From a virus (lineage: Duplodnaviria > Heunggongvirae > Uroviricota > Caudoviricetes): a stretch of DNA of 28,819 bases. Within the stretch, counting starts at the first letter, position 1. Each line of letters starts with the position of its first letter. The stretch lies in IMG/VR virus record IMGVR_UViG_2541047926_000006. One strand, written 5' to 3'. The notes beneath the pieces were generated by a model. That model saw only the letters and a program-made list of their open reading frames with translations, was not told where the DNA came from and searched no databases. Shown one piece after another: positions 3,306 to 24,134 of the stretch. The translations under genes were made by a program, and so were the position numbers.

Positions 3306-3881
3306 CTACGGCAGTGCTGGCCATTCAATATCCTGTGCAGTTGACGTATCAACACGGTTCAGCAACACCCGATACTTTTTCCAGGCTTCCAGCAATGAGG
3401 TTTCTTCCTCCGTTGCGATTTCCAGATCTACAGCATCCTGAAGTGGCGCAATATGCTCACTGGCTACCTGCATCAGGCTGTTTTTTGTTTCTTCCGCCTC
3501 TCGGATCCGGAACAGTTTTTCTGCTTCTGCATCTTTCACCCAGGCTGTGCCGTTCCACTTCTGAAACTCCCCTTCCGGCGATAACCAGGTAACATTTTCC
3601 GGTAACGGACCGAGTTCAGAAATAAATAACGCGTCCCCTGACGCTACGTCATAAACCGTTTTACCCCGATGGTCTTCAACGAGATGCCACGATGCCTTAT
3701 CACTGTTGAAAACAGCCACAAAGCCAGCAGGAATATCTGGTGGTGCAATATCGGTACTGTTTGCTGGCAGACCTGTATGAGGCGGAATATATGCGTCACC
3801 TTCACCAATAAATTCATTAGTTCCGGCCAGCAGATTATAAATTTTTATGGTCCGTGGTTGTTCACTCATTCTGAATGCCAT
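3306..3881 (-). CDS. tfaQ: Tail fibre assembly protein
   Basis: 191-aa ORF immediately downstream of the tail-fibre ORF with a 1-nt stop/start overlap (TAATG). Sequence recognised as Tfa family. Confidence 0.85.
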
Positions 3882-8490: not shown

Positions 8491-8785
8491 TTTGTCGCTC
8501 CATTCGTTTGCTCTTCACTTGCGGCTAAAAATATAACGTCAAATCACTCAGCATGAAAGAGTGAAAGTTTCAGCGCGTTTCCCTTACATAATCTGTCGTT
8601 TGTATTCTCTTCAGGCATACCGGAAAGACTAGGTATTGTCACACAACCAATACCATCGACAATCGAGATTTATATCTATTCGGTAATGTTTAAATATAAC
8701 AAAACCCCGTAAAAACGAGGTTTATGGGTAATTTGTATTGTTGAATAGCATCTGATGAGAAATTGATGCTAATACTATAAACATG

Positions 8786-8959
8786 CTAGATTAAATCAAT
8801 CTTGATATCATAGCTTTCAAGACCAGTCATTTTTTCCCGTGCAGTAAACTGGATACTGGTAACTTCTTTCCCGGTCTTTTTCTTAAGCTCAATGATTTTT
8901 TTTGTTATATATTCAGAAATATCTGCTTCTGTTTTTGTTTTTAACTCTTCAATGTTCAT
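8786..8959 (-). CDS. gnsB: GnsA/GnsB-family protein
   Basis: 57-aa product MNIEELKTKTEADISEYITKKIIELKKKTGKEVTSIQFTAREKMTGLESYDIKIDLI. Start chosen at the ATG after AAGAGGAA, not the 88-aa maximal ORF. Confidence 0.85.
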   Translation of the reverse strand: MNIEELKTKTEADISEYITKKIIELKKKTGKEVTSIQFTAREKMTGLESYDIKIDLI

Positions 8960-9131
8960 CATTTCCTCTTTTAGTCTGTTATGACTGTCCTGGTACACAG
9001 TAGTGTCAATTATATGGAGCAAACGTATAAAAGATAAGATGAAACATCGCAATAATCAACATACGACGGTCTAAATTTCACACAAACAGATAAAAATGAT
9101 TATCATTTATTATCAATGCATTAGAATCAAA

Positions 9132-9287
9132 TCAATTCAAGAGTCTCATTGCTGCTTCCAGAATTTCTTCTGAAGTTACATGTCGATCCGCTGCTACATA
9201 AATGACTTTATGATCTCCGGTCAGAGATGGAAACCCTGCAGCCATTACAGTGAGGTGTGTTGTTTCGCCATTTGGATATTCACGCAT
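9132..9287 (-). CDS. ynfN: Cold-shock-induced small protein YnfN
   Basis: 51-aa product MREYPNGETTHLTVMAAGFPSLTGDHKVIYVAADRHVTSEEILEAAMRLLN with GGAG upstream. The maximal ORF extends to 9401; the true start is uncertain. Confidence 0.6.
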   Translation of the reverse strand: MREYPNGETTHLTVMAAGFPSLTGDHKVIYVAADRHVTSEEILEAAMRLLN

Positions 9288-9403
9288 GATGGTGTTAACT
9301 CCGGTCATCACTGGCACTACCATTGCTGGTTCAGAGTTAAAAAAAACTATTATTTTTTTCATAATGTTACCGTAATATGTGAGTATCCATCGACTAGACA
9401 CTA

Positions 9404-9428
9404 AGCAAAAAAGCTCCCGAAGGAGCCT
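9404..9428 (-). terminator. Hairpin plus T-run between cspI and ynfN (putative cspI terminator)
   Basis: Minus-strand GCTCC TTCG GGAGC stem-loop followed by TTTTTTG. Confidence 0.5.
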
Positions 9429-9633
9429 TCATTTTCACTTTCTTAAATCTAACGACAGATGGCTAACATTTAAGTATTGTGAAATATTATCAAATGTAAT
9501 CATCATTGATTTACAAAAGATACATTTTGCCCCGAAAGGATTTCTGTCAGAAACATCAAAAGATGATGTTCTATACTGAGAACCATGGCAACACGGGCAT
9601 CTAAAGTGAATATGGTTTGTAATATTTTCTACC

Positions 9634-9846
9634 TCAAAGTGCCACTACATGAACAGCTGCAGGGCCTTTAGGTCCGTTCTCAATACCAAATTCGACTTCC
9701 TGATTCTCAGTTAACGTTTTGAAATCGTTGCTCTGAATAGCTGAGAAATGCACAAACACATCTTTGCTACCATCTTTCGGCGTGATGAAACCAAAACCTT
9801 TTTCAGGGTTAAACCATTTCACTAAACCAGTCATTTTGTTAGACAT
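9634..9846 (-). CDS. cspI: Cold-shock protein CspI (CspA family)
   Basis: 70 aa, [38 protein letters not shown]..., with RNP1/RNP2 motifs. AAGG Shine-Dalgarno. Confidence 0.9.
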
Positions 9847-10209
9847 CATTATTACCTTTTGAAGAAGTTAGCCCTTGGGCAGAATGGTCCGAAAAAAAAT
9901 ATCAGAGAGAAAAACCAACAAGGAAATCTCAAGAGGTACAAAGAATAAAATTATAACAATGACTGCTTCAGATAATTTTGTAACAAACCAGAACACCATT
10001 AACGCATGATTAACCAACCATAGCAAGGATTACTTTTGTAAAGAAAAACACACGAATGAAACAATAGCTTTATTTATTAATAAAACGTGTCATTCTGTCT
10101 AATGACCTTTTATCTTACCCTTAAGATTTCAAGGATTTTGACTCATGGAAGAGTCCTTTTTATTTAAATTTCACATTCAGCGCTAAAAATAATCCGATTT
10201 AATATTAAT

Positions 10210-11237
<1,028 letters not shown>

Positions 11238-11350
11238 GGATATTTATCAGGATTTATCGGCTTCAAATCCCCGGATATGTTAAATCTTACCTCACCAGTG
11301 ATGGGCACTGGCGGGAGGAGGATGTCAATCTGATAAACACAGAGGTGACT

Positions 11351-11611
11351 ATGGATTACACAAATCTACCAAAACAAACTTTTGCTGATTTAATCGCACT
11401 CAGGCAAGCAGTCGTAGCTCTAATCAACTTGTTGCCGGAGAAGGAAAAGGAATTAGTTAAAGCGCTTCTTAACAGAACTGCCGCCGATTTTTCATCATAT
11501 CCACTGACAGATGACCTTGCGGACCTTCCTGAATTAATTGCAGCGTCCGCCATTAAGCTTACTGAAGAGATTTACCCTCCTCAAAAATCTTCACAAAATT
11601 CCTGCGAGTAA
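11351..11611 (+). CDS. Hypothetical 86-aa protein, convergent with and overlapping the 3' end of the DUF1327-like gene
   Basis: ATG at 11351 preceded by AGAGG about 5 nt upstream. The product looks helical and protein-like. No family recognised, so it could be a spurious antisense ORF. Confidence 0.35.
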   Translation: MDYTNLPKQTFADLIALRQAVVALINLLPEKEKELVKALLNRTAADFSSYPLTDDLADLPELIAASAIKLTEEIYPPQKSSQNSCE

Positions 11612-12110
11612 CTTCAATGCAATAATCGTAAAACGCCGCAAACTGCTCATCGCGGCGTTTTTTTTCATCTTCAGAAGGAATCAGCACCGACAATTTTTTA
11701 TTCAGATCAGCGACGCTGCCCTCCAGTTTTTCAATGGGCGATTCAATATCATCTTTTTCTGACCGCAATGCCGTCGGTGGCGTCTTCAGAGAACCAGTAA
11801 TTCTTCCCGGTAGCTTTCCTTTGTAGGTTATCCACACATTCTGCGCCTCTAAAATTATGGGGCGCTTTTCCGGCGACTGCTCATCCCCTTCACATAACCC
11901 GGCAGCAACATCCAGGAAGACCTGTCTGATGCTCATTCTGGCTGCTGCCTCATAAAACTCCAGCGCGGCACCTTCAACACGGTCCAGCGAGATGTCCAGG
12001 TCAAAAATTTCACCGTCAAAGCGTTCTTTGTCCTGTAATGCTAAAGTTACCGTAACTTTATTCTCAAAATTGCGGATCCCTTTCACAATCAGTTCATAGT
12101 TTTGAGTCAT
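11559..12110 (-). CDS. ydfR: Uncharacterised protein inserted between pinholin and endolysin (ydfR position; DUF1327-like by recollection)
   Basis: 183-aa ORF between essQ and rrrQ on the same strand. Symbol assigned by position; I recall K-12 YdfR as shorter, so this may be a longer or intact form. Confidence 0.6.
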   Translation of the reverse strand: MTQNYELIVKGIRNFENKVTVTLALQDKERFDGEIFDLDISLDRVEGAALEFYEAAARMSIRQVFLDVAAGLCEGDEQSPEKRPIILEAQNVWITYKGKLPGRITGSLKTPPTALRSEKDDIESPIEKLEGSVADLNKKLSVLIPSEDEKKRRDEQFAAFYDYCIEVTRRNFVKIFEEGKSLQ

Positions 12111-12114
12111 TGAA

Positions 12115-12330
12115 TTACTCTCCTCTCGCAGCCTTACGCCTGTCTTCTTTAATCTTGAAATAAAGATTTGTCAGATACGTCAGCAGGCCAAAAACCAGGC
12201 TACCCAGCACACCGATTGCAGCCCACTGTGACGGAGTTACTTTATCGAGTAACTGCAATGCCCAGAAACCAGCATTACCCGCCGATGTGCCATAGGCAAC
12301 ACCTGTTGTTAACTTATCCATTGATTTCAT
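12115..12330 (-). CDS. essQ: Phage-21-type pinholin with dual start motif (MKSM...)
   Basis: 71 aa, [71 protein letters not shown], near-identical in pattern to S21 as I recall it. Start chosen at MKSM, not the 96-aa maximal ORF. Confidence 0.85.
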
Positions 12331-12549
12331 ATCCTCACCCCGATGTACACGGATGGTGCAATATGTTTGAAAAGATCGGAGTCTACGGGGTAGTTTTGAC
12401 AGCACACGTTGTTCTCAACGGCGCTAAAAAAACATACACATTAAAAATGTGGGTAATTATTTTGAAAGAAAGTCATATATAAAATAATAATACGAGAAAT
12501 GTTTTCATATTTAGTGTACTGTATACGGCCATTTATACAGGAAAAGCCT

Positions 12550-12720
12550 ATGTCAGAACGTAAAAACTCAAAATCACGCCGTAATTATCTCGTTAAATGT
12601 TCCTGCCCAAACTGCACCCAAGAGTCAGAACACAGTTTTTCAAGAGTACAAAAAGGTGCCCTTTTGATCTGCCCTCATTGCAACAAAGTATTCCAGACAA
12701 ATCTTAAAGCTGTAGCCTGA
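12550..12720 (+). CDS. ynfU: Small zinc-ribbon protein YnfU
   Basis: 56-aa product MSERKNSKSRRNYLVKCSCPNCTQESEHSFSRVQKGALLICPHCNKVFQTNLKAVA with two CxxC pairs. AGGA Shine-Dalgarno. Confidence 0.7.
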   Translation: MSERKNSKSRRNYLVKCSCPNCTQESEHSFSRVQKGALLICPHCNKVFQTNLKAVA

Positions 12721-12780
12721 TTGATTTTATTAGTAACAAGTATTTTTTATATTTTAATAATATATTTAAAGCAGATAATA

Positions 12781-12803
12781 AAAAACCCGCCTGAGCGGGT
12801 TTG
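12781..12803. terminator. GC-rich hairpin flanked by an A-run and a short T-run (possible terminator, mainly in minus orientation)
   Basis: AAAAACCCGC CTGA GCGGGTTT. Confidence 0.45.
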
Positions 12804-13083
12804 AGATTGTGGTGCTTTTTGTGGGAGTCATCCACTTACGCACTTTGTTTTGCCATGCCAGCAGTTAGCTTCTGCTGTAAAACTATTCATGCAGCAAACC
12901 TGCACTTCACCACAATGGTTAGCATACTTTTCCTGATTAAGATTTTGCCAAATATGCTAGCCATTGTTTCATGTATTGGACCTCCTTACTTTTTATTAAA
13001 GAGATCCAATATTCACTACTCTGTCCGTATCTCTACTCAGGCATCAGCCTTCTTCGTTATCGTATACAGACGAGCGATGAATT

Positions 13084-13299
13084 TTAATCAGTAATGATGA
13101 CATTTGCTGCTGCAGGACCTTTAGCACCACTCTCTATAGAGAAGGTAACCTTTTGACCTTCAAATAAGGTTCGATAATTATCATTCTGAATCGCAGAAAA
13201 ATGCACAAACACATCTTTACTACCATCAACAGGAGAAATAAAGCCGAAACCTTTATCAGCGTTAAACCATTTTACTAAACCAGTCATTTTATTTGACAT
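13084..13299 (-). CDS. cspB: Cold-shock protein CspB (CspA family)
   Basis: 71 aa, [71 protein letters not shown]. Confidence 0.92.
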
Positions 13300-13599
13300 T
13301 CTACATTCCTTAACTTGAGCCTTTCGGCATAAATGGTTTGCATAACAGAAACGACTTCGTACTTAATTGGAGAGACTCAAAGAAGGAATAAGTGAATAAC
13401 ACCTGAAATGAGAACTGCTTTAGTAAACTACTTCGTATATCGTCTGTTCTTCAAACCGACGCAATCATTAACGCATAGTTGAACATATGAAGCAATGTTT
13501 ATTTTAGACATCCAGCCATCTTCAACCCCATCAAAAAACTATAGCTTTCTTCAGGAACGTGTGTATAGTGCGCCAAGTTATCAGTATTAAGGAATTTTT

Positions 13600-13812
13600 T
13601 TGTCCCGTAAAATGACAGGAATTGTCAAAACCTTTGACGGCAAAAGCGGCAAGGGTCTTATCACCCCATCCGATGGTCGTATCGATGTCCAGCTTCATGT
13701 TTCAGCGCTCAATCTCCGCGATGCAGAAGAAATTACCACCGGATTACGCGTGGAATTTTGCCGGATAAATGGTCTGCGTGGCCCTTCAGCTGCCAATGTT
13801 TACCTTTCATGA
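13600..13812 (+). CDS. cspF: Cold-shock-like protein CspF
   Basis: 70 aa, [70 protein letters not shown]. Divergent from cspB. Confidence 0.9.
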
Positions 13813-13866
13813 GCTATATTAAAGCTTTAATTTCAGGCCCCATCGGATCACACATGGAGAGTTTTT

Positions 13867-13956
13867 ATGAATAACCCCGTCTGTCTTGATGACTGGTTGA
13901 TTGGCTTTAAAAGCTTATGCTGTACTTTGGCCGTAATAGCTCTGCTAATAATATAA
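13867..13956 (+). CDS. Candidate 29-aa hydrophobic small protein downstream of cspF
   Basis: ATG at 13867 preceded by GGAGAG about 6 nt upstream. Product [32 protein letters not shown] stop. Below the ORF-track length cutoff; found by eye. Confidence 0.3.
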
Positions 13957-14104
13957 TAAGCAGACTCATTGTGTTTAGGGACATTGTACTGGAAGAAAAC
14001 ATTTTAAACATCAGGCAAATAACCAAGTCACCAGCTAAATAATAAGTTAACAGACATGAGTCCCGGGATGAGATTCAACATTACCATTGCCCCATTTAAA
14101 GCAC

Positions 14105-14140
14105 AAAACCCGCTCATCAGCGGGTTTTCTACTTTTTCTT
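14105..14140. terminator. Bidirectional rho-independent terminator between cspF and the Q-like gene
   Basis: AACCCGC TCATCA GCGGGTT stem-loop flanked by an A-rich run upstream and TTTTCTACTTTTTC downstream. Confidence 0.55.
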
Positions 14141-14233
14141 AACGTCGGGTATACAAAGCCCATCGTTGAAAAAATTTTATCCATATTTTTTGAAAAATGC
14201 AAACATCATGTCGCCATCTTCAGCAAAAATCAT

Positions 14234-14740
14234 TTATCTCGTCACCTTCCTCAATTGCGCTTCCGCGTATGCTTCTTCCTGCCAGCACTTTGTTACCAGT
14301 TTACCAATGACGTCCGCATACCCCTTATACCACTGATAATCGGTCAGGTCTGGTACCAGCTTCTGGACATGACGTCGTGCCAGCGTGGTCGGTAAACGAC
14401 TAAACCGGTTTCCATTACAACGCCCACAAATCTTATATACCGGTACGCCATGAAACCGGGTTCTTTTTTCATCCAGAACAATCCCTTTACCCTTACACCC
14501 TCTGCACGCTGTGCTGGCTTCGCCCTTACCATGGCAATGCTGACATAGTTCCTTCACCCATTCTTCCTTGATTACAGATTCCCCGCGTCTGTAGTGTTTC
14601 ACCACTTCGCGCAATACATTATAAAATCCCGTACCTGAACAATGCTCACAGCGAGCCTTACTTGCCGCAGACCTGGAGTAATCAGCAAAGGCAAAACTCA
14701 CGAGGTAAGGAATAATCTGTAACCGGATTTCTTCACTCAA
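14234..14740 (-). CDS. quuQ: Q-like late antiterminator, distal part, with four DnaJ-type CxxCxGxG zinc-finger repeats
   Basis: 168-aa ORF whose only in-frame start is TTG at 14738-14740. Motifs CEHCSGTG, CQHCHGKG, CRGCKGKG, CGRCNGNR. Lies upstream of the lysis cassette as a Q gene should. Confidence 0.7.
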   Translation of the reverse strand: MSEEIRLQIIPYLVSFAFADYSRSAASKARCEHCSGTGFYNVLREVVKHYRRGESVIKEEWVKELCQHCHGKGEASTACRGCKGKGIVLDEKRTRFHGVPVYKICGRCNGNRFSRLPTTLARRHVQKLVPDLTDYQWYKGYADVIGKLVTKCWQEEAYAEAQLRKVTR

Positions 14741-14985
14741 TTGTTCAATGTCGGGTTATCCAGTGCCATCGCGTAATTTAGCAGGCCTTCAATCGCAAAC
14801 TGAGGGTCCTGAACACCAACTTTTGCCAGAAATAAGGCCAACCCAAGTGGTGCTTTCGACTGCACCATCCCCTGCGCTGCCATTACATCCGTAATTGTTA
14901 AACAACCGGTGCCTGTCGCTGGAGCGTCATCGCTCAATTTTGGAGATTTTGGGGAGTAATATTTTGGTAAGGCTTCAAGGTTCAT
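14737..14985 (-). CDS. quuQ: Q-like antiterminator, proximal part (82 aa), 1 nt out of frame with the distal part
   Basis: ATG at 14985 with GGAG 7 nt upstream (MNLEALPKYY...). Its stop (14737-14739) overlaps the TTG of the next ORF. The 752-nt span plus one base would give a single 250-aa frame. Confidence 0.55.
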   Translation of the reverse strand: MNLEALPKYYSPKSPKLSDDAPATGTGCLTITDVMAAQGMVQSKAPLGLALFLAKVGVQDPQFAIEGLLNYAMALDNPTLNN

Positions 14986-14998
14986 GCTCGTTCTCCAC

Positions 14999-16048
14999 TT
15001 ACGCCAGTACGCCAATTGCCAGCGCGCGATCGATAAAACGAAATATCAGCTCCAGTTGGGAGCCATACTTATCTTCAAATGCCACTGTATCCGTATGCAG
15101 CTCGTTGTGATGCTTTCTGCACAAAGGCAACACAAAGAGATCATGTGCTTTTGTTCCCATTCCGCCCTGCCCGTGACCAATCAGATGATGCGGATCGTCG
15201 GCTGGCATACCGCAGCAAGCACACGGCTGTGTCTTAACCCAACGTGTGTATTTCTCCTTAACCCAGCGGCGACGTTTAGGCAGCTTCATGAAAGATTCCG
15301 GAGACTCTGGATCAACGGTGATGCTTACCACCGTCTTTTCCTGTGGTGATTTTTGTTGCTGGTGGGCGTAAGGCAACGGTGCAAGATTTTTTGTGCGTTG
15401 TTTCAATATGCTGGTGGCGGTCTGCTCTCCCGGTACGATGTCGCTTTCGCGGTACACCGAGCAGATTTTTTCCGCTGGTAATCCCAGCGAACGACGCGAT
15501 ACAGCCTCAGGTAGTGCATCCACCACCTGATTGCAGACCGCCCACCAGGATAATTCAGCCAAAGATAATTCCCGCTCCTGCGTACCGCTTATTGCGTGAC
15601 GGATGACGTCAATCACCCATGCTGTCAGATTTTGTTGAGCAAGCAGCTCCAGTGATTCCGATGTCTGGTCACGCAGTTGGTTGTCGCAGTGCCAGCACAA
15701 CACCATTGCGCCGGTACCATAACGGTGAATGACTGTTTCAGTGTGATGGTAATCGCCATTAGGCCGCTGGCAGGATGTAACATGACGTAATAGCCAGTCG
15801 GACAATGCGCCAACGCCGCCAGCAGCACGAATCACCCGTTCGTTACTAAAAAACGGCAGCAATGTTTTGTCTTCCGCCAGCGGCTGGCGAACGGCAGGAA
15901 CGACTCCGGATGGCAGATTACGCATGCTTTTTGGTTCCGGTTCCACCAGCACTCGAGGATTATGAAATATCTGTATGGATTCACGGCCCGGCTTAAGGAC
16001 CACCAGCCCAAGCTCAGGCACCAGAACAGGTCTAAGTAATACCCGCAC
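14999..16048 (-). CDS. ydfU: DUF968-type protein with a C-terminal Cys/His-rich putative HNH-like motif
   Basis: Start chosen at GTG 16046-16048, directly preceded by GGAGG, giving 349 aa. C-terminal CACCGMPADDPHHLIGHG...CRKHHNELH. The maximal ORF extends to 16087. Confidence 0.8.
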   Translation of the reverse strand: MRVLLRPVLVPELGLVVLKPGRESIQIFHNPRVLVEPEPKSMRNLPSGVVPAVRQPLAEDKTLLPFFSNERVIRAAGGVGALSDWLLRHVTSCQRPNGDYHHTETVIHRYGTGAMVLCWHCDNQLRDQTSESLELLAQQNLTAWVIDVIRHAISGTQERELSLAELSWWAVCNQVVDALPEAVSRRSLGLPAEKICSVYRESDIVPGEQTATSILKQRTKNLAPLPYAHQQQKSPQEKTVVSITVDPESPESFMKLPKRRRWVKEKYTRWVKTQPCACCGMPADDPHHLIGHGQGGMGTKAHDLFVLPLCRKHHNELHTDTVAFEDKYGSQLELIFRFIDRALAIGVLA

Positions 16049-16049
16049 G

Positions 16050-16328
16050 TTACCTCCAGATCCGTTGCTGGAAAGTGCGGGACGCACGTGGTGGGCGTTC
16101 GGAATAAGGCAGCCTGACAGAGATTATCCAGTGCCGATAGTCGAGACTGAGAGCTTTCTTAACCTCGAACCCGCGCCTGCGGTAAGAATGAATCAGCCAT
16201 TCGGCCTGTTCTGCAGTGCATGGAGGGTGCTGGAACCATTCAGACTTGAATGCGTGAGAATACCGCCCGTGCGTGCAGGCAAGAACGGGCGAATTATCAG
16301 AATTGTAATATTTTGCGTTGCGTGCCAT
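16050..16328 (-). CDS. Hypothetical 92-aa protein translationally coupled to ydfU
   Basis: Its stop TAA (16050-16052) lies 1 nt from the ydfU GTG start. No family recognised. Confidence 0.5.
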   Translation of the reverse strand: MARNAKYYNSDNSPVLACTHGRYSHAFKSEWFQHPPCTAEQAEWLIHSYRRRGFEVKKALSLDYRHWIISVRLPYSERPPRASRTFQQRIWR

Positions 16329-16394
16329 CGGTTTTCTCCGGTGGCACGGTGTTACTCAGCGGGAGTTCAGCCCCGCGCAAGATTGTAGATGAGT

Positions 16395-16646
16395 TTATTC
16401 TCCTGAAAAAGCAGAAAAGCCAGCTTTTATTCCGATCTCTTTCAATGCCTGTAATGAAGTGACAAACTCACCTTCGCGCAAGATAAATCCGTCCGTGACC
16501 CGAGCATCCACAAAATTAATTAACGCAGCCCCATTCTTTCGCAAACACATAATGCGGTAATGACTAACAAGATTTCCATTTTCAACGCACACAGCATAGA
16601 GGCCATCTTCACAAAAAATTTTACGCAGTTCTTCGATGTTCATCAT
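16395..16646 (-). CDS. rem: Small prophage protein (rem position)
   Basis: 83-aa ORF MMNIEELRKIFCEDGLYAVCVENG.... Symbol by position and length, from recollection of the K-12 gene order. Confidence 0.55.
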   Translation of the reverse strand: MMNIEELRKIFCEDGLYAVCVENGNLVSHYRIMCLRKNGAALINFVDARVTDGFILREGEFVTSLQALKEIGIKAGFSAFSGE

Positions 16647-16763
16647 CAGAATCCTTCCGGATAATTAGCTCTCCCCTTTAAGGGACCATCCCTCTTATCC
16701 CTGCGCGCTACTTAAGTATTTTTGATTCTATTCCGGCACCGTCCAGAACTTCAAACACGTTGA

Positions 16764-16794
16764 AAATAAAAACAAAAACCCGCCGAAGCGGGTT
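16764..16794 (-). terminator. Rho-independent terminator of the relB-relE-hokD operon
   Basis: Minus strand AACCCGC TTCG GCGGGTT followed by TTTTTGTTTTTATTT, about 70 nt after the hokD stop. Confidence 0.7.
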
Positions 16795-16862
16795 AAGTGC
16801 GGGTGCGTTGAGGATGCCTGCCACATCAGAGGTGGCGAGGGATTTCTCCCCCGCCGGGTCTC

Positions 16863-17018
16863 TTACTCCTCAGGTTCGTAAGCTGTGAAGACAGCGACCT
16901 CCGTCTGGCCGGTTCGGATTCGTACCTCGCAGAGGTCTTTCCTCGTTACCAGTGCCGTCACTATGACGGTTAAACAGATGACGATCAGGGCGATTAACAT
17001 CGCCTTTTGCTGCTTCAT
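16863..17018 (-). CDS. hokD: Hok-family type I membrane toxin (HokD/RelF)
   Basis: Translated by hand: MKQQKAMLIALIVICLTVIVTALVTRKDLCEVRIRTGQTEVAVFTAYEPEE (51 aa). Not in the ORF track because it is under the length cutoff. Confidence 0.92.
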   Translation of the reverse strand: MKQQKAMLIALIVICLTVIVTALVTRKDLCEVRIRTGQTEVAVFTAYEPEE

Positions 17019-17089
17019 AGCCTGCTTCTCCTGTCAACGCAAAGCAGAAGTGTCACCTTCGGTGCGAAACAGAGATGTCATGCTTTGGT

Positions 17090-17377
17090 TCAGAGAATGC
17101 GTTTGACCGCCTCGCTATATACTTCCGAGCGTTCTCTTTTCCCAACAGAAATCACGAAAACGACAACTTTCTCGTCTATAACCTGGTATACAAGGCGATA
17201 GCCTGAAGACCGGAGCTTAATCTTGTAACAATCAGGCATACCACGGAGCTTGTTTGCTTCAATCCGGGGTGACTCAAGTACTTCAACCAGCTTCTTTTTC
17301 AACTGTTCACGTACCGTCGAGCCCAGCTTTCGCCATTCCTTTAGTGCCCGCTCGTCAAAATCCAGAAAATACGCCAT
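17090..17377 (-). CDS. relE: RelE type II toxin (ribosome-dependent mRNA interferase)
   Basis: 95 aa, MAYFLDFDERALKEWRKLGSTVREQLKKKLVEVLESPRIEANKLRGMPDCYKIKLRSSGYRLVYQVIDEKVVVFVISVGKRERSEVYSEAVKRIL. Confidence 0.95.
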   Translation of the reverse strand: MAYFLDFDERALKEWRKLGSTVREQLKKKLVEVLESPRIEANKLRGMPDCYKIKLRSSGYRLVYQVIDEKVVVFVISVGKRERSEVYSEAVKRIL

Positions 17378-17616
17378 CAGAGTTCATCCAGCGTCACACG
17401 TACTGGCTTAGGATTACGAAGCCGTTCTTTCACTATCTCCACAAGTTCAGCATCTTCATCACTCAGGAGTGTCTGTTTGAACGGCAAGCGTTCATTGTCA
17501 GCGATATACTCGAGCATGAGACGAAGCGCTTCAGAAGGAGTTACACCCATTTTTTCAAGCGCGGCGTAAGAACGCGCTTTAAGTTCATCGTCAATACGCA
17601 GGTTAATGCTACCCAT
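17377..17616 (-). CDS. relB: RelB antitoxin
   Basis: 79 aa, MGSINLRIDDELKARSYAALEKMGVTPSEALRLMLEYIADNERLPFKQTLLSDEDAELVEIVKERLRNPKPVRVTLDEL. Stop overlaps the relE start. Confidence 0.95.
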   Translation of the reverse strand: MGSINLRIDDELKARSYAALEKMGVTPSEALRLMLEYIADNERLPFKQTLLSDEDAELVEIVKERLRNPKPVRVTLDEL

Positions 17617-17627
17617 GTCTTACACCT

Positions 17628-17653
17628 CTTGTAATTACAAATGTCATTACAAG
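17628..17653 (-). promoter_or_regulatory. relBE operator (relO): tandem 12-bp palindromic repeats upstream of relB
   Basis: CTTGTAATTACAA ATGTCATTACAAG; TTGTAATTACAA is a perfect palindrome. Located 12 to 37 nt upstream of the relB ATG. Confidence 0.7.
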
Positions 17654-17946
17654 TATCGCACTACAACATGCTTAGGGCAAGTCACGAAGGAAGTCAGAAA
17701 GTAGTCGTAAGAACGGTGATCACTGTCCGCTTTGTGCCAGGAGCAGCCATTGCTAAGTCCATCCTGTATTGTGCAGGTCAGCTCGTTTTTAAAGAGTCCG
17801 GCCATCATCTTACTGGTACAGACACCATATACTTTGTGACGGTCAGGCTACATATGCACAACTCAACTTATTCATCTATTTTTTGCTTTAGCATGTCAGT
17901 GTTGCTTTCTCGTCGGCGGGTGAGCGGTGACCTGACCTGTCGATAA
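17641..17946 (+). CDS. ydfV: Uncertain ORF divergent from relB (ydfV position)
   Basis: 101-aa ORF starting inside relO. Sequence is not convincingly protein-like; listed only because an ORF of this length is, as I recall, annotated here in K-12. Confidence 0.3.
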   Translation: MSLQVSHYNMLRASHEGSQKVVVRTVITVRFVPGAAIAKSILYCAGQLVFKESGHHLTGTDTIYFVTVRLHMHNSTYSSIFCFSMSVLLSRRRVSGDLTCR

Positions 17947-24081: not shown

Positions 24082-24134
24082 TTTCTGGTGACGTTTGGCG
24101 GTATCAGTTTTACTCCGTGACTGCTCTGCCGCCC
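24082..24134 (+). ncRNA. dicF: DicF small RNA (Hfq-dependent; represses ftsZ translation)
   Basis: TTTCTGGTGACGTTTGGCGGTATCAGTTTTACTCCGTGACTGCTCTGCCGCCC followed by TTTTT, matching the DicF sequence as I recall it, including its intrinsic terminator. Confidence 0.9.

Follow-up and report, generated by a model that had tools for sequence, protein, structure and literature searches.

The ynfS locus

The DNA analysed here, referred to below as the window, is one strand of 28,819 nucleotides from a Caudoviricetes record (IMG/VR IMGVR_UViG_2541047926_000006), and all positions refer to it unless another sequence is named. It carries a reading frame of 29 codons downstream of the cold shock-like gene cspF, in the following arrangement.

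13600 to 13812, plus strand: cspF, cold shock-like protein CspF, the adjoining co-oriented upstream gene (K-12 annotation, ORF)
13856 to 13861, plus strand: Shine–Dalgarno sequence GGAGAG, 5 nt 5′ of the start codon (direct reading)
13867 to 13956, plus strand: ynfS coding sequence, 29 codons and a stop codon (equal to K-12 b4750; Pfam PF23697; published translation data)
13894 to 13953, plus strand: predicted hydrophobic, possibly transmembrane helix, codons 10 to 29 (hydropathy)
13957 to 14104, plus strand: 3′ UTR between the ynfS stop codon and the terminator, poorly conserved (comparison of alleles and of Citrobacter loci)
14105 to 14138, both strands: bidirectional intrinsic terminator, AAAACCCGC-TCAT-GCGGGTTTT and then a T-run (terminator scan)

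The preliminary description of this DNA, made from its letters alone, had pointed to an ATG at 13867 that is preceded by GGAGAG and opens a 29-codon frame. This reading is exact: GGAGAG at 13856-13861 is followed by a TTTTT spacer, the ATG and a TAA stop codon that ends at 13956, all on the plus strand. According to the ORF listing, the ATG is also the earliest start codon in its frame after the preceding in-frame stop.

All 90 bases from 13867 to 13956 are identical to ynfS (b4750; NC_000913, 1642122-1642211), a gene of the cryptic prophage Qin of Escherichia coli K-12. The peptide matches the Pfam family PF23697, ‘YnfS’, with 80.9 bits against a cut-off of 27 and covers positions 1-29 of 29; its UniRef name is ‘Protein YnfS’ and its UniProt entry YNFS_ECOLI. 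Many E. coli chromosomes, K-12 among them, match the window over 13400-14300 with 100% identity. The gene lies downstream of cspF and ahead of ydfT in the window, in K-12, in the phages 2H10 and PhiR63_1 and in Citrobacter. Searches of the NCBIfam, PHROGs and PADLOC profiles with YnfS returned no significant family, and the sole PHROG match (E = 0.12) was taken as chance.

The gene is already known from the K-12 reference, PGAP output, Pfam and published experiments. The preliminary description had placed the frame below the ORF cut-off and among those that annotation usually misses. That part has to be withdrawn, as ynfS is annotated in NC_000913, has a Pfam family and is called by PGAP, which gives it as a ‘hypothetical protein’ between cspF and ydfT in the remaining genomes inspected. 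What the present analysis adds is a set of Citrobacter orthologs, an estimate of selection, a core motif (D-W-L-x-G-x-K-S-x-C-x-T) and the anatomy of the operon and its terminator.

Evidence for translation

Short reading frames that follow a Shine–Dalgarno-like sequence are easily produced by chance. The window holds five ATG-initiated ORFs of 20-50 amino acids with GGAG 4-9 nt upstream, and block shuffles of it hold 5.5 +/- 2.4; one of those in the window is hydrophobic, against 0.2 +/- 0.5 in the shuffles. Because the count is at the level of chance, the status of the 29-codon frame as a gene must rest on outside evidence.

Such evidence has been published. In Table 1 of VanOrsdel 2018 (PMC6001520) ynfS is listed with identical coordinates and sequence and with cspF and ydfT as its neighbours. 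According to that paper it had been an unidentified positive of a tetracycline ribosome-profiling screen, and YnfS was one of 36 small proteins seen on immunoblots after chromosomal SPA tagging (VanOrsdel 2018, PMC6001520). Ribosome profiling with retapamulin and with Onc112 then gave strong peaks at the ynfS start, and the tagged protein was detected in stationary phase (Weaver 2019, bioRxiv 10.1101/511675). Both the protein and the initiation peaks were seen at the native locus of unstressed cells in ordinary LB cultures (PMC6001520; 10.1101/511675). The sole further remark on ynfS expression that we found concerns its down-regulation by fluoride under anaerobiosis. Two of the checks proposed in the preliminary description, epitope tagging at the native locus and initiation-site ribosome profiling, had therefore been published with positive outcomes, the former as an SPA band (VanOrsdel 2018, PMC6001520) and the latter as start peaks (Weaver 2019, bioRxiv 10.1101/511675). 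They bear out its central claim of a genuine translated small protein.

YnfS is translated from ATG 13867 via the GGAGAG ribosome-binding site. Given the identity with ynfS, the published translation, the Pfam match and a frame that is conserved across genera (see below), the 29-codon frame is real, and we are confident that it is ynfS, a genuine small-protein gene of Qin-type lambdoid prophages. The locus thus serves as a positive control: a genuine small-protein gene, which classical ORF cut-offs would miss, was recognised from raw sequence.

Conservation within E. coli

Of 5426 complete E. coli genomes, 1412 (26%) carry the segment from 13813 to 14000; it matched 1413 records, 1290 of them with an identity of 99% or more. 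In a phage collection, tblastn with E. coli and Citrobacter peptides found ynfS in five records, which stand for four E. coli phages because 2H10 is represented twice. These are the inducible lambdoid phages 2H10, PhiR42_1, PhiR63_1 and HannyBb; in 2H10 and PhiR63_1, where the position of the gene was checked, it is unchanged. Matches in Pectobacterium and Pseudomonas phages, with E-values of 6-8, were dismissed as chance.

Anchoring on cspF gave 84 E. coli-type loci, and the ynfS frame is intact in 82 of them. The other two have a start codon changed from ATG to ATA (locus L088) and a nonsense substitution, K15* (L030). In one further strain (L008) a deletion takes the 3′ end of cspF together with the 5′ part of ynfS. 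Variants in the E. coli clade comprise one synonymous and ten nonsynonymous changes, which does not differ significantly from neutrality (p = 0.29). This nonsynonymous excess and the knock-out alleles suggest that constraint on ynfS may be relaxed in the cryptic prophages of E. coli. The K-12 and CFT073 allele types differ by 2.2% in the ynfS ORF and by 16.2% in the 3′ UTR (p = 0.0005), a contrast that might also arise from a recombination boundary.

Homologs in Citrobacter and taxonomic range

A scan anchored on cspF, with one genome per species, identified ynfS homologs in four Citrobacter species, namely Citrobacter sp. FP75, C. braakii, C. pasteurii and C. meridianamericanus. All four are exactly 29 codons long, carry GGAGAG 5-6 nt upstream and encode proteins that are 52-59% identical to the E. 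coli form, while the flanking DNA cannot be aligned with the E. coli flanks. They score above the Pfam YnfS threshold and carry the public annotation ‘hypothetical protein’. Where the cspF-like gene is intact, in three of the species, the ynfS homolog begins 63-66 nt past the stop codon of that gene. The exception is the C. meridianamericanus locus (L114, 400-1100, minus strand), where a deletion has taken the first half of cspF (5′ side) and left the last ~33 codons; the ynfS homolog and its GGAGAG are intact directly 3′ of this remnant. Either ynfS has been retained independently of cspF here, or the locus is a recent product of decay.

Taken over E. coli and Citrobacter loci, GGAGAG is invariant in 207 of 207 copies, with a spacer of 5-6 nt. 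A degenerate DNA pattern for the core motif, run against IMG/VR, matched 120 prophage stretches; each of the 120 encodes a 29-amino-acid member of the family, and 18 of them are of the Citrobacter type. Synonymous sites are near saturation between the genera, and translation in frame 1 gives 12 invariant columns against 5-6 in the other frames. Pairwise dN/dS between E. coli and Citrobacter ynfS is 0.12-0.32 (Fisher p = 0.002-0.025). Synonymous variants are also enriched within the Citrobacter clade, where they account for 20 of 43, or for 14 of 37 once codons fixed by the pattern are left out (p = 0.02).

In Salmonella, Klebsiella, Enterobacter and the other Escherichia species, neither cspH nor cspF-like genes are followed by a member of the family. 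We considered whether cspH, which is the paralog of cspF on the chromosome, has a ynfS paralog on its 3′ side, and rejected this, as the homology between the cspF and cspH loci ends at the stop codon; cspH-type loci from 30 species contained neither a hydrophobic ORF preceded by a Shine–Dalgarno sequence nor a match to the family HMM. Two Qin-like loci, one from Escherichia ruysiae (L112) and one from a MAG contig labelled Veillonella parvula (L113), have a frameshifted cspF and, at ~1500-1780, are missing the ynfS segment, with homology resuming only at the terminator-proximal 3′ UTR. The presence of Enterobacteriaceae prophage fragments in the Veillonella MAG and in one from Mucilaginibacter (L103) appears to result from binning contamination.

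These comparisons indicate that ynfS is under longer-term purifying selection, has a narrow range and decays sporadically in cryptic prophages. The preliminary description had named conservation of the reading frame in related prophages as a check, and the intact frames in E. coli-type loci and the fixed length in four Citrobacter species agree with it.

Transcript layout

The stop codon of cspF and the start codon of ynfS are separated by 54 nt on the same strand, and a plus-strand scan of this gap found no promoter-like or terminator-like site. A hairpin with a 10-bp G+C-rich stem follows at 14105-14128, 150 nt past the ynfS stop codon, and is invariant across E. coli alleles. From this layout cspF and ynfS most likely share one transcript, with cspF as the first gene, that ends at the hairpin at 14105-14128. 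The hairpin is also flanked by an A-run, hence it should stop transcription from either side. It may act on the minus strand as a tR′-like terminator downstream of the Q gene ydfT, as the symmetry of the A-run and T-run and the order of the genes suggest.

A promoter-like sequence, TTTGCA-18-TAAAAT, lies on the minus strand at 14203-14174, just 3′ of ydfT, and is followed by the hairpin at 14128-14105. Together they look like a lambdoid pR′/tR′ pair, which would give a transcript of about 70 nt. A match to the Rfam family isrK, a prophage sRNA, overlaps this site; it scores 16.6 bits (E = 0.44), far short of the gathering score of 50, and is probably due to chance.

Over the ynfS locus, including the 3′ UTR, Rfam gave nothing at the gathering score or at E <= 0.1, and chance-level matches only at E <= 1. 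The RNA from 13810 to 14140 folds with z = -0.86 relative to shuffles, and the Shine–Dalgarno sequence is unpaired in the centroid. The 3′ UTR resembles nothing in the Citrobacter loci. Given a fold at shuffle level, Rfam scores far below gathering and 16% divergence within E. coli, we rejected the idea that it holds a conserved RNA structure or sRNA.

Both cspF and ynfS are antisense to the late operon and lie between the Q antiterminator gene and the holin gene of the lysis cassette. This is a classic position for accessory (‘moron’) genes.

Neighbouring prophage genes

The host strain of the window is not K-12, with which it shares 99.6% identity over 11905-17744 and 92.5% over 8781-11247. 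The Q antiterminator gene ydfT (quuQ; 14234-14986, minus strand) has a 1-nt deletion relative to K-12 MG1655, with a frameshift near 14740. The 250-codon reading frame of ydfT is thereby broken into two segments in different frames, of 168 and 92 codons, which makes Q a probable pseudogene in this strain. Upstream, ynfU (12550-12720, plus strand) is intact and encodes a 56-amino-acid zinc-knuckle protein (MSERKNSKSRRNYLVKCSCPNCTQ...). The conservation of ynfU, cspB, cspF and ynfS together in Citrobacter loci means that the four genes travel as one module.

About 660 nt at 11247-11905 stand in place of about 90 nt of K-12 and encode a protein of 183 amino acids (ORF 11559-12110, minus strand) between the lysozyme and holin genes. 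This ORF matches a 552-nt ‘YdfR family’ gene of the phages 2H10 and PhiR63_1. The ydfR gene of K-12 (312 nt) looks like a shortened version of this 552-nt gene.

Elsewhere in the window Rfam reached its gathering score four times, with cspA-type thermoregulator 5′ UTRs, the DicF sRNA and IS009.

13068 to 13460, minus strand: cspA-type thermoregulator 5′ UTR of cspB
9588 to 9993, minus strand: cspA-type thermoregulator 5′ UTR of a cspI-like gene
24083 to 24134, plus strand: DicF sRNA
3340 to 3538, minus strand: IS009

The match between cspF and the cspA thermoregulator model is at chance level (15.5 bits, E = 0.12). In phage PhiR63_1 (locus L005, 3088-5061) about 1.7 kb with several tiny annotated ORFs are found between ynfS and Q that are extra relative to 2H10, hence the distance from the late promoter to ynfS is variable.

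Properties of the protein

The mean Kyte–Doolittle value over 19 residues (residues 11-29) is 2.46 for the E. coli protein and 1.5-1.9 for the Citrobacter versions. The Wimley–White octanol sum of -8.25 kcal/mol is favourable and similar to those of TisB and ShoB. The preliminary description had proposed a single probable transmembrane helix. Its hydrophobic segment stands, but a full membrane span is uncertain, because the hydrophobic run past K15 spans just 14 residues and hydropathy is lower in the Citrobacter versions. A lipoprotein or signal peptide was rejected, since C18/C19 are preceded by K-S-L and form no lipobox, and there is no positively charged N-region.

Invariant or near-invariant residues are M1, L7, D9, W10, L11, G13, K15, S16, C18, T20 and L26, and they give a conserved core of L7-x-D-W-L-x-G-x-K-S-x-C-x-T20. 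As D9, G13, S16 and T20 are spaced by 3-4 residues, a helix would carry them on a single face. The result is a suggestive stripe of small and polar residues, of the kind used for packing between membrane helices.

Proposed function and alternative explanations

We propose that YnfS is the product of a prophage accessory gene, expressed in lysogens and cotranscribed with cspF. The C-terminal two-thirds of the protein would form a single hydrophobic helix in the inner membrane, and the D9-G13-S16-T20 stripe would pack on a transmembrane helix of a host or phage membrane protein, or of a second YnfS. It would then act in the manner of the small modulators of membrane proteins and not as a lytic toxin. 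Judged from hydropathy and the pattern of conservation, we give this mechanism a little less than an even chance. A broader form of the same idea, which we regard as doubtful, is that cspF-ynfS is a conserved two-gene moron operon of Qin-type prophages in Escherichia and Citrobacter in which YnfS modulates a host envelope protein, e.g. for stress tolerance or superinfection exclusion, possibly together with CspF. CspF is an atypical cold-shock protein, poor in RNA-binding motifs. If true, this reading would give roles to both proteins.

Three other explanations were weighed. One, which the preliminary description had raised beside a regulator of membrane proteins, is a type I toxin; in this case YnfS would depolarise the membrane and be restrained by an antisense RNA or by antisense transcription of the late operon. 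Its small size and its hydropathy near that of TisB and ShoB are what such a toxin would have, the K-12 annotation places hokD and relBE in the same prophage, and in inducible relatives the layout would send late transcripts from the Q side across ynfS in antisense. A promoter-like site on the minus strand (13977-13948) is directed into the ORF as well, but it is weak, with 9 of 12 positions matched; six such sites occur, barely more than the 3.6 in shuffles, and it overlaps sequence past the stop codon that lacks conservation in Citrobacter. Toxins of this class are normally blocked in translation, whereas YnfS was detected at its native locus in ordinary LB with strong initiation peaks, and the fold described above does not tie up the ribosome-binding site (z = -0.86, unpaired in the centroid). 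Among the catalogued Rfam families no antisense RNA or sRNA reached the gathering score or E <= 0.1, and YnfS has no PADLOC or toxin-family match. The relevant papers examined that mention YnfS contained no report of growth arrest or membrane damage on overexpression, although a C-terminal tag could mask toxicity. We therefore consider a type I toxin very unlikely.

Somewhat less improbable, if still unlikely, is that ynfS is translated into a peptide without a function of its own, either as a young, near-neutral ORF riding with cspF or for an effect in cis, where translation would shield the 3′ region of the cspF mRNA from Rho or RNases. The E. coli variants (one synonymous, ten nonsynonymous), the existence of knock-out alleles, the narrow taxonomic range and the E. 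ruysiae locus without the ynfS segment are all compatible with this. No function has been reported either: a 2024 y-ome survey lists ynfS among the uncharacterised Qin genes. Against it stand purifying selection at the amino-acid level between Escherichia and Citrobacter (dN/dS near 0.2), a length fixed at 29 codons and a core motif that has been kept while synonymous sites became saturated. The ORF and Shine–Dalgarno sequence that persist in C. meridianamericanus despite the loss of the 5′ half of cspF argue in the same direction. That the frame is a chance ORF with a fortuitous Shine–Dalgarno-like sequence would agree with the number of such ORFs in the window, which equals shuffle expectation (5 against 5.5), but it is effectively refuted by the published tagging and initiation profiling, by a frame and length conserved across genera, by a dN/dS well below 1 and by the Pfam family.

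Comparison with known systems

The closest known system is YnfS of E. coli K-12, which is identical to the window copy in DNA, protein and position, between cspB/cspF and the Q gene ydfT.

The type I toxins of E. coli (Hok/HokD, TisB, ShoB, Ibs and Ldr) are proteins of 19-51 amino acids with one hydrophobic helix and a hydropathy comparable to that of YnfS. One of them, HokD, is borne by the same prophage element as ynfS in K-12. Unlike these toxins, YnfS has no cognate antisense RNA that we could find, is translated in unstressed cells, has a Shine–Dalgarno sequence that is not occluded and shows no similarity to toxin families.

AcrZ, MgrB and MgtS represent a class of short, single-helix modulators of inner-membrane proteins. 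By analogy YnfS may resemble this class, since it is short, hydrophobic, detectably expressed and has a conserved small and polar face on its predicted helix. It differs in that its hydrophobic segment is shorter and interrupted by K15/S16, and in that it belongs to a prophage cassette and not to a chromosomal regulon.

Other small proteins are encoded next to prophage csp paralogs and were found by the same studies as YnfS, namely YnfR and YnfQ beside cspI and YnfU beside cspB. YnfR is cold-induced (VanOrsdel 2018, PMC6001520) and YnfU is a zinc-knuckle protein (Weaver 2019, bioRxiv 10.1101/511675). YnfS shares their setting beside a cold-shock gene but no sequence relationship with them; it alone is hydrophobic, and its partner gene is cspF.
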